A DNA stretch of 64,000 nucleotides from Armatimonadota bacterium (GTDB lineage Bacteria > Armatimonadota > UBA5829). This document shows, in pieces, positions 55,896-56,486 of the stretch. Each line of letters begins with the position of its first letter. The first letter of the stretch is position 1. The DNA is taken from the NCBI GenBank assembly GCA_050948905.1, contig JBMNES010000001.1:2272083-2336082 (forward strand). The letters run 5' to 3'. The position numbers and the translations under genes are program-made. Below the pieces are notes generated by a model. It was not told the DNA's origin, did not search any database, and worked only from the letters and a program-made list of their open reading frames with translations.

Positions 55896-56486
55896 CTACG
55901 GCTTCCAGACCTCCCAAACCTTGCCGACCAGTTCCGGGCCGGGGGTCAGGGTGGTTTGACCGGGCTGCCAGCCAGATGGGGTGACTTCTCCGGTGGCGAC
56001 CACGTGCTGGAATGCCTTCAACTGCCTTAGAAGTTCTTCGGGATTTCGCCCAACCTCAGGAGTGAGTACTTCCATTGCACGGATGACAAAGTCCGGGTCG
56101 ATGATAAATCGTCCGCGGATGTCGACTCCCGCCTCTTCGTCGTAGACGCCGTAGACGGAGCCGATCTTTCCACCGGCATCTGACAGCATCGGGAACGGCA
56201 CTCCGCCGGGCAGCATCTTGCTGAGTTCCTCTTCCTGCCAGATCTTATGCACAAACCTGCTGTCCGTGCTCATTGCCAAAACGACCGTATCGAGCTTCTT
56301 GAATTCTTCATAACGGGCAGCGACCGCTGCCAACTCGGTCGGTCAAACAAATGTGAAATCGCCGGGATAGAAACACACGACGATCCATTTGCCTTTATAA
56401 TCTGAGAGTTTCACGGGCTTAAAGCCCTTGCCGACGAACGCGTTAGCTTCAAAATCTGGAGCCGGCTTGCCAACTCGTGCCAACAT
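55896..56486 (-). CDS. Peroxiredoxin (AhpC/Prx1 family) with in-frame TGA at the peroxidatic position: predicted selenocysteine-containing peroxiredoxin
   Basis: The ORF track splits it into 56343..56594 and 55896..56333. Joined, it reads [47 protein letters not shown]-[TGA][14 protein letters not shown].., where the canonical sequence is FTFVCPTE. The TGA is at 56343-56345. AGGAGG lies 8 nt upstream of the ATG at 56486. Confidence 0.7.
56316..56331 (-). promoter_or_regulatory. Putative bacterial SECIS hairpin (GGCAGC-GGUC-GCUGCC) 11 nt downstream of the in-frame UGA
   Basis: mRNA UGA CCG ACC GAG UUG GCA GCG GUC GCU GCC. The perfect 6-bp stem has apical GGUC with G22/U23 numbered from the UGA. 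In E. coli fdhF SECIS the essential loop bases are G23/U24. Confidence 0.55.

Follow-up and report, generated by a model that had tools for sequence, protein, structure and literature searches.

A predicted selenocysteine-containing PrxU-type peroxiredoxin gene with two conserved candidate translation starts

Results

A UGA codon at the peroxidatic position of a PrxU-type peroxiredoxin

Within the 64-kb stretch of DNA analyzed here, which we refer to as the window, the minus strand carries a PrxU-type peroxiredoxin gene (prxU) whose in-frame UGA at codon 84 is, as judged from comparative sequence evidence, very probably read as selenocysteine (Sec) in a functional gene and not the mark of a pseudogene. 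The TGA at 56345-56343 is the sole interruption when the minus-strand frame from 56594 to 55896 is translated, and the mechanical ORF list accordingly holds two fragments, 56343..56594 (83 aa) and 55896..56333 (145 aa). A preliminary description of this DNA, made from the sequence alone, had joined the two fragments into one AhpC/Prx1 protein and had placed the UGA exactly at the peroxidatic Cys (FTFV-UGA-PTE). Both points held: the two fragments are present as it had described them, and in an alignment with PRDX2 the UGA falls in the peroxidatic Cys (Cp) column of FTFVCPTE. The features of the locus are collected in Table 1.

Table 1. Features of the prxU locus, in window coordinates
Feature	Position	Strand	Detail or basis
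prxU long ORF	55896..56594	minus	232 codons including UGA-84, plus TAG stop; translation, NF040737, Pfam, tblastn
UGA codon 84, peroxidatic (Cp) position of PxxxTxxU	56343..56345	minus	predicted to be read as selenocysteine
SECIS-type hairpin, 6-bp stem and GGUC loop	56316..56331	minus	minimum-free-energy fold and covariation
Shine-Dalgarno GGAGG (56604-56600), 5-nt spacer, ATG (56594-56592)	56592..56604	minus	probable long-isoform start
N-terminal arm motif, residues 5-16, with Cys8 at 56573-56571	56547..56582	minus	near-invariant Cys8; variable low-complexity linker next
Internal Shine-Dalgarno GGAGG (56499-56495), 8-nt spacer, ATG (56486-56484, Met37)	56484..56499	minus	conserved candidate second start
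Sigma-70 consensus promoter, TTGACA-16 nt-TATAAT	56679..56706	minus	12/12 positions matched
Intrinsic terminator, GC-rich hairpin then T-run	55832..55866	minus	fold energy -21.1 kcal/mol
Thr205 in canonical C-terminal resolving-Cys position	55980..55982	minus	alignment to PDB 1qmv

For assignment to a family, the protein was scanned with Cys substituted for the stop codon. The NCBIfam equivalog NF040737 (peroxi_PrxU), which has a cut-off of 270 bits, matched the 196-aa form (read from the ATG at 56486) with 362 bits and the 232-aa form (read from the ATG at 56594) with 374.5 bits, the latter match spanning positions 2-230 of the 233 in the profile; the next family, AhpC (TIGR03137), reached 180 bits and lies under its cut-off of 272. 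Pfam recognized AhpC-TSA (6e-38) and 1-cysPrx_C (PF10417), and the top PDB matches were Prx1-type enzymes, the best being PRDX2 (E = 1e-49), which covers residues 3-183 of the 196-aa form, or 39-219 of the long form. The motif PxxxTxxU (as written in PMC13188914) is present as P77-G-D-F-T81-F-V-U84. Sec/Cys pairing was also seen in a comparison with Cys-containing homologues, of the kind that the preliminary description had proposed: among the best 120 protein clusters the Sec column holds Cys in 50 and a "W" in 52, and a further 16 are 145-aa C-terminal fragments that begin after the TGA. Both of the "W" clusters that we checked have TGA in the DNA and are translation table-4 mistranslations.

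Transcription unit and surroundings

The gene is very probably a functional monocistronic unit (55896-56594, minus strand), transcribed from the consensus sigma-70 promoter and ending at the intrinsic terminator. The promoter precedes the first ATG by ~85 nt, and its sequence is kept in the related metagenome-assembled genome (MAG) L001 (contig CAZBSI010000004.1), which has 96-98% DNA identity to the window and is syntenic with positions 52733-59592. The terminator begins 30 nt past the stop codon, and its fold (z = -4.6) was equaled by 0 of 200 shuffles. A pair of ABC exporter genes (56850-59247) is transcribed divergently from prxU, and a DUF3800 gene follows on the downstream side.

Two further observations concern the flanks of the gene. 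Shortly past the -10 box, in the 5' UTR at 56655-56672 on the minus strand, there is a perfect 6-bp hairpin (GCAGGC-AUUACA-GCCUGC). It sits close to where the transcript is predicted to begin and may stabilize this 5' end; in L001, one arm base changes a G-C pair to G-U and the loop is different. On the other side, ~1.5 kb (54312-55823) separates a tRNA-Gly/tRNA-Cys pair (54139-54292) from the prxU terminator and contains the DUF3800 gene (54448-55158) together with an overlapping 172-aa ORF of no family (55131-55649). L001 has ~1.3 kb of different DNA in its place, and because the DNA differs here in a relative that is otherwise 96% identical, we regard this stretch as a small variable islet beside the tRNA genes.

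Conservation of the UGA and selection on the downstream frame

We scanned one genome per GTDB species by tblastn and retained the 80 closest loci, in most of which the match covered query residues 1-232 (worst case, 7-232). These loci span Chloroflexota/Anaerolineae, Acidobacteriota, Krumholzibacteriia, Thermodesulfobacteriota, and Ignavibacteria, and they include the isolates Desulfacinum hydrothermale DSM 13146 and Desulfothermobacter acidiphilus. The preliminary description had named frameshifted or decayed orthologues as the finding that would speak against a selenoprotein; what the relatives carry instead is TGA at the Sec codon in 80/80 loci, TAA or TAG in none, and an intact frame of 148-155 stop-free codons after the TGA in every one. 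An uncultured Chloroflexia bin (L037) has an extra in-frame stop ~63 nt upstream of its Sec codon, within the Prx core (FKNG-stop-MSDYKGKW), which could reflect either an indel in the assembly or real decay of this copy of the gene.

Selection on the region past the UGA was assessed from substitutions. Over the 432 nt after the TGA, the window and L001 differ at 21 positions, all 21 of them synonymous (dN 0, dS 0.24); relative to more distant loci, dN is ~0.1 and dS at least 1.4, which is saturated. Since all change past the UGA in the close comparison is synonymous and dN stays far below dS in the others, we conclude that the downstream region is translated and is under strong purifying selection.

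These data bear directly on whether a nonsense mutation in the catalytic Cys codon has turned this peroxiredoxin gene into a pseudogene. Such a pseudogene would appear as two fragments in a mechanical ORF list, as this gene does, and would also be in keeping with the lack of visible Sec machinery within the 64-kb window (see below). However, a decaying gene would not be expected to show the same TGA, never TAA or TAG, in 80/80 orthologous loci across phyla with the frames intact on both sides, nor 21/21 synonymous substitutions after the TGA relative to L001, nor a promoter, Shine-Dalgarno sites, and a terminator that are all intact. We consider a pseudogene extremely improbable, and this reading is effectively refuted. 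An error of sequencing or assembly, by which an ordinary Cys peroxiredoxin with TGC or TGT would appear with TGA, requires little, in that a single base separates TGA from TGC; however, the identical codon and hairpin are found in the independent MAG L001 and in 79 other assemblies produced by different technologies. Its probability is negligible, and the independent assemblies refute it.

A different question is whether the UGA, if translated, is translated as Sec. Among the longest ORFs of the window that do not overlap (n = 35), 12 end in TGA, and because TGA is thus an ordinary stop, we take the genetic code to be standard; a search of the 64 kb for other genes with a single in-frame TGA between long open stretches returned none that was plausible. 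Read-through to another residue, either under a code reassigned to Trp or Gly or by near-cognate tRNA-Cys or tRNA-Trp suppression without SelB, would agree with the Trp that gene callers put here in many homologues, and the presence of Sec machinery in the source genome is something we infer. Against this stand the ordinary use of TGA as a stop and the absence of a second gene of this kind in the window, as well as the nature of the "W" calls, which are table-4 artifacts on short contigs. Moreover, Trp or Gly in the peroxidatic position would kill a peroxiredoxin, and read-through of this sort gives no role to a covarying hairpin at SECIS distance. We therefore regard read-through to a residue other than Sec as very unlikely, and selenocysteine remains our reading of UGA-84.

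A covarying hairpin downstream of the UGA

The hairpin GGCAGC-GGUC-GCUGCC that the preliminary description had reported at 56316-56331 is present as described. A spacer of 11 nt separates the A of the UGA from the G that opens the stem, and the hairpin occupies nt 15-30 counted from the U of the UGA, with a perfect 6-bp stem and no bulge. As a single sequence, a 36-nt segment folded at -11 kcal/mol (z = -0.8), and 42 of 200 shuffles folded at least as well; a 64-nt segment gave z = -1.2. In addition, the stem lies over codons for Ala-Ala-Val-Ala-Ala, and the GC with which each Ala codon begins fixes four of the six base pairs. The hairpin had been offered as support for Sec insertion as it stood, and in this form the argument did not survive, its single-sequence fold being not significant and its stem largely a by-product of Ala codons, but covariation across species supplies the support in its place. 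Because the single-sequence fold is not significant, it is the comparative data that carry the case for the hairpin.

Over 78 distinct sequences the stem was 92.5% paired, and the central loop bases were GU in 78/78, these bases being at the same time the first two of a conserved Val codon. Stem pair 4-13 (columns 27-36), which falls at synonymous sites, was GC in 59 sequences, AU in 16, GU in 2, and CG in 1, with 0 mismatches (n = 78), and the loop-closing pair formed by the first and fourth loop bases (columns 30-33) was GC in 41, AU in 35, and GU in 1, with 1 mismatch (n = 78). This level of covariation was reached by 0 of 500 shuffles, and slid controls were lower. On a neighbor-joining tree of the downstream protein, the pair states switch at least 12-15 times independently, indicating that the covariation does not descend from one inherited event. 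RNAalifold alone retained only the inner three pairs, and the full helix was judged by explicit pair counts. No Rfam covariance model matched at the hairpin, either when the entire window was searched at the gathering threshold or when 56250-56400 was searched at E <= 10; no model having matched, this result says nothing about bacterial SECIS function.

As a control, we used nine loci of Cys-containing relatives; a metagenome pattern search for the same peptide with Cys gave three loci. The hairpin was intact in five of the nine and eroded in four, through a broken stem pair, a lost loop closure, or loss of the GU. The hairpin is thus not exclusive to Sec-forms, several Cys-forms having retained it, and its erosion in the others fits relaxed constraint in what is a small sample of nine loci.

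The hairpin also bears on the possibility that the locus is a split gene, in which an N-terminal polypeptide of 83 aa assembles into one fold with a C-terminal one of 145 aa that has an initiation site of its own (a TTG at 56333). The TTG-start ORF does begin 9 nt after the TGA, and many 145-aa fragment calls are found in databases. The TTG, however, has no preceding Shine-Dalgarno sequence and is located inside the hairpin, the assembled protein would be without its catalytic residue, and neither the exclusive use of TGA nor the SECIS-like covariation would be explained, all of which makes a split gene highly implausible. With these alternatives weighed, the preliminary claim of a selenoprotein as opposed to a pseudogene is borne out by membership in the PrxU family, TGA in 80/80 loci, synonymous-only change, a standard code, and covariation of the hairpin.

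We also looked for components of the Sec machinery near the gene. ARAGORN found no tRNA-Sec in the 64-kb window, in which tRNA-Gly and tRNA-Cys were the only tRNAs; a search of 60 related loci for tRNA-Sec was likewise negative. With E. coli SelA, SelB, and SelD as queries, tblastn gave nothing real in the window or in the flanks of related loci. A weak SelD match at 43933-44181 is PurL, a member of the AIR-synthase superfamily, and was rejected as SelD.

Two starts and an N-terminal arm

The preliminary description had started the gene at the ATG at 56486. We found that the frame is open upstream of this codon as far as the ATG at 56594 and that the 36 added residues raise the PrxU score to the 374.5 bits given above; from the sequence, the prxU ORF probably starts at 56594, and 56486 is instead a conserved internal start. 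The N terminus that this adds, M-x-E-x-K-D-G-C-V-x-P-A-x-G-P-I, is common to nearly all 80 loci. In 66 of 77 loci the distance from the upstream start to the arm Cys is exactly seven codons, and GGAGG or AGGAG precedes this first start in 71 of 77.

The internal site is conserved as well. Of the 80 loci, 73 carry a perfect GGAGG at a distance of 5-11 nt (usually 8) from a following in-frame start codon, and the start codons that follow the internal GGAGG are ATG in 59 cases, GTG in 11, and TTG in 8. The GGAGG is kept whatever residues it encodes (QEV, KEV, MEV, LEA, VEG, REE, RRE, or GGG), and over 81 sequences it occurs 78 times in one 15-nt bin and at most 27 times in any other; Glu codons elsewhere in prxU are GAA in 55% of cases. 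In arm-less relatives (L081 and L089), the internal ribosome-binding site is the only one, and in secreted planctomycete Cys-forms (L086 and L088) it has decayed. Its sole use in the former and its decay in the latter fit the internal site as a functional start. The simplest reading of these data suggests that two prxU isoforms, one long and one short, are made from one mRNA.

For the structure of the arm, we consulted the AlphaFold2 model of P0005, a Cys homologue that is 78% identical. In this model, linker residues 19-33 are disordered (pLDDT < 50), and the block of residues 11-20, which contains the second half of the arm motif, has a mean pLDDT of ~70, compared with 52 for residues 1-10.

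The arm is of interest in connection with the resolving thiol. Among 108 homologues, 95 have Thr and 1 has Cys in the resolving-Cys column, and the segment reads GEVTPSGW in the window protein versus GEVCPAGW in PRDX2; with Thr in place of the resolving Cys, the protein cannot run the typical Cp-Cr disulfide cycle between subunits. Two other cysteines are conserved: Cys74, which precedes the Sec by ten residues and is kept in 86 of 101 homologues, and the near-invariant Cys8 of the arm. Candidates for the resolving thiol are therefore Cys8, Cys74, or thioredoxin acting directly. Because the canonical resolving Cys is lost and Cys8 is conserved, we hypothesize that the arm Cys is a reasonable candidate for this role. 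A more elaborate scheme, in which the two starts act as a unit, the long isoform forming a Cys8-Sec84 selenenylsulfide that replaces the lost resolving Cys, the short form being arm-less, and the two possibly entering mixed oligomers, is one we put forward tentatively and think somewhat doubtful. Clostridium pasteurianum Cp20 may be a case in point; our literature search for N-terminal resolving Cys in Prx1-type enzymes returned nothing usable.

Discussion

We propose that, when the ribosome reaches UGA-84, the hairpin 11 nt downstream would be bound by SelB carrying Sec-tRNA(Sec), with the GU exposed in the loop, and that SelB would deliver selenocysteine instead of termination, as it does at the E. 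coli fdhF SECIS. The resulting enzyme would reduce peroxides via a selenolate in the PxxxTxxU pocket, and a thiol and, in the last step, thioredoxin would resolve the selenenic acid so formed. What we infer in this scheme is that SelB binds, that Sec is inserted, that the source genome has selABCD, and which thiol does the resolving.

The practical consequence is for annotation. The locus should be annotated as one selenoprotein gene, with a transl_except for Sec at 56343-56345, and not as two fragments or a pseudogene, and prxU marks its source organism as a probable selenocysteine user. The same problem extends to the homologues, in that the entry of Sec-forms as "Trp" or as fragments is a systematic mis-annotation that hides selenoproteins. 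The PrxU family is under-counted in the public protein collections searched because most of its entries there are either 145-aa fragments or "Trp" mistranslations made with table 4.

Biologically, the window gene is a plain member of the known Sec-peroxiredoxin family and adds nothing new on Sec-peroxiredoxins. The preliminary description had called these proteins rare, and on this point it was mistaken: they form a common and long-cataloged bacterial family, which was the fifth commonest among bacterial selenoproteins in 2006, with 12 genes (PMC1794560), and which by 2016 comprised 91 genes in 78 organisms (PMC5029168). A 2026 review lists the PxxxTxxU motif for Sec-peroxiredoxins and credits the first purification, of PrxU from Eubacterium acidaminophilum, to Sohling et al. 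2001 (PMC13188914). How a Prx1-type enzyme is recycled when it lacks the usual resolving Cys is a question to which the dual-start architecture and the N-terminal Cys arm are relevant; these features are the only part of this locus that might repay further work, and we regard them as modestly interesting and unproven.

The downstream hairpin is best compared with the E. coli fdhF SECIS, a 17-nt minihelix at nt 15-31 after the UGA, whose sequence we confirmed in 5419 of 5426 E. coli genomes. A bulged U17 in the 5' arm of that minihelix is required by E. coli SelB, and this feature is specific to E. coli. The window hairpin does not have the bulged U, and because it is absent, the loop GU lies one nt nearer to the UGA, at nt 22-23 versus 23-24 in fdhF; the preliminary description had called the two loop distances essentially the same, which is exact for the 11-nt spacer and off by one nt for the GU. 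The window stem also differs in being 6 bp long with no lower helix back to the UGA, and the first and fourth loop bases of the window family covary (G..C or A..U). Since the requirement for U17 is E. coli-specific, a hairpin that lacks it could still act as a SECIS with a different SelB. The two elements are alike in lying within coding sequence, in the 11-nt spacer, in an apical GGUC loop with its GU, and in a stem whose sequence is otherwise free to vary (PMC8659212).

At the level of the protein, the nearest characterized relative is the PrxU of E. acidaminophilum, a protein of ~203 aa. The two share an AhpC/Prx1 fold, a UGA-encoded Sec (predicted, for the window protein) in PxxxTxxU, and the lack of a canonical C-terminal resolving Cys, and the window protein is well over the equivalog cut-off of the PrxU family, which is named as thioredoxin-dependent. 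Unlike the E. acidaminophilum gene, the window gene comes from an uncultured bacterium, its nearest prxU loci are in Anaerolineae/Chloroflexota MAGs, and it encodes the 36-residue N-terminal arm with a conserved Cys and has the second, internal start site. We know of no biochemistry for the PrxU clade to which the window gene belongs. Compared with typical 2-Cys peroxiredoxins such as AhpC and human PRDX2 (PDB 1qmv and 7kj1), the window protein has the same Pro/Thr/Arg catalytic residues and the same PF10417 C-terminal domain, whereas its peroxidatic residue is predicted to be Sec in place of Cys, the resolving Cys of GEVCP is replaced by Thr, and an extra conserved Cys lies ten residues before the Sec.
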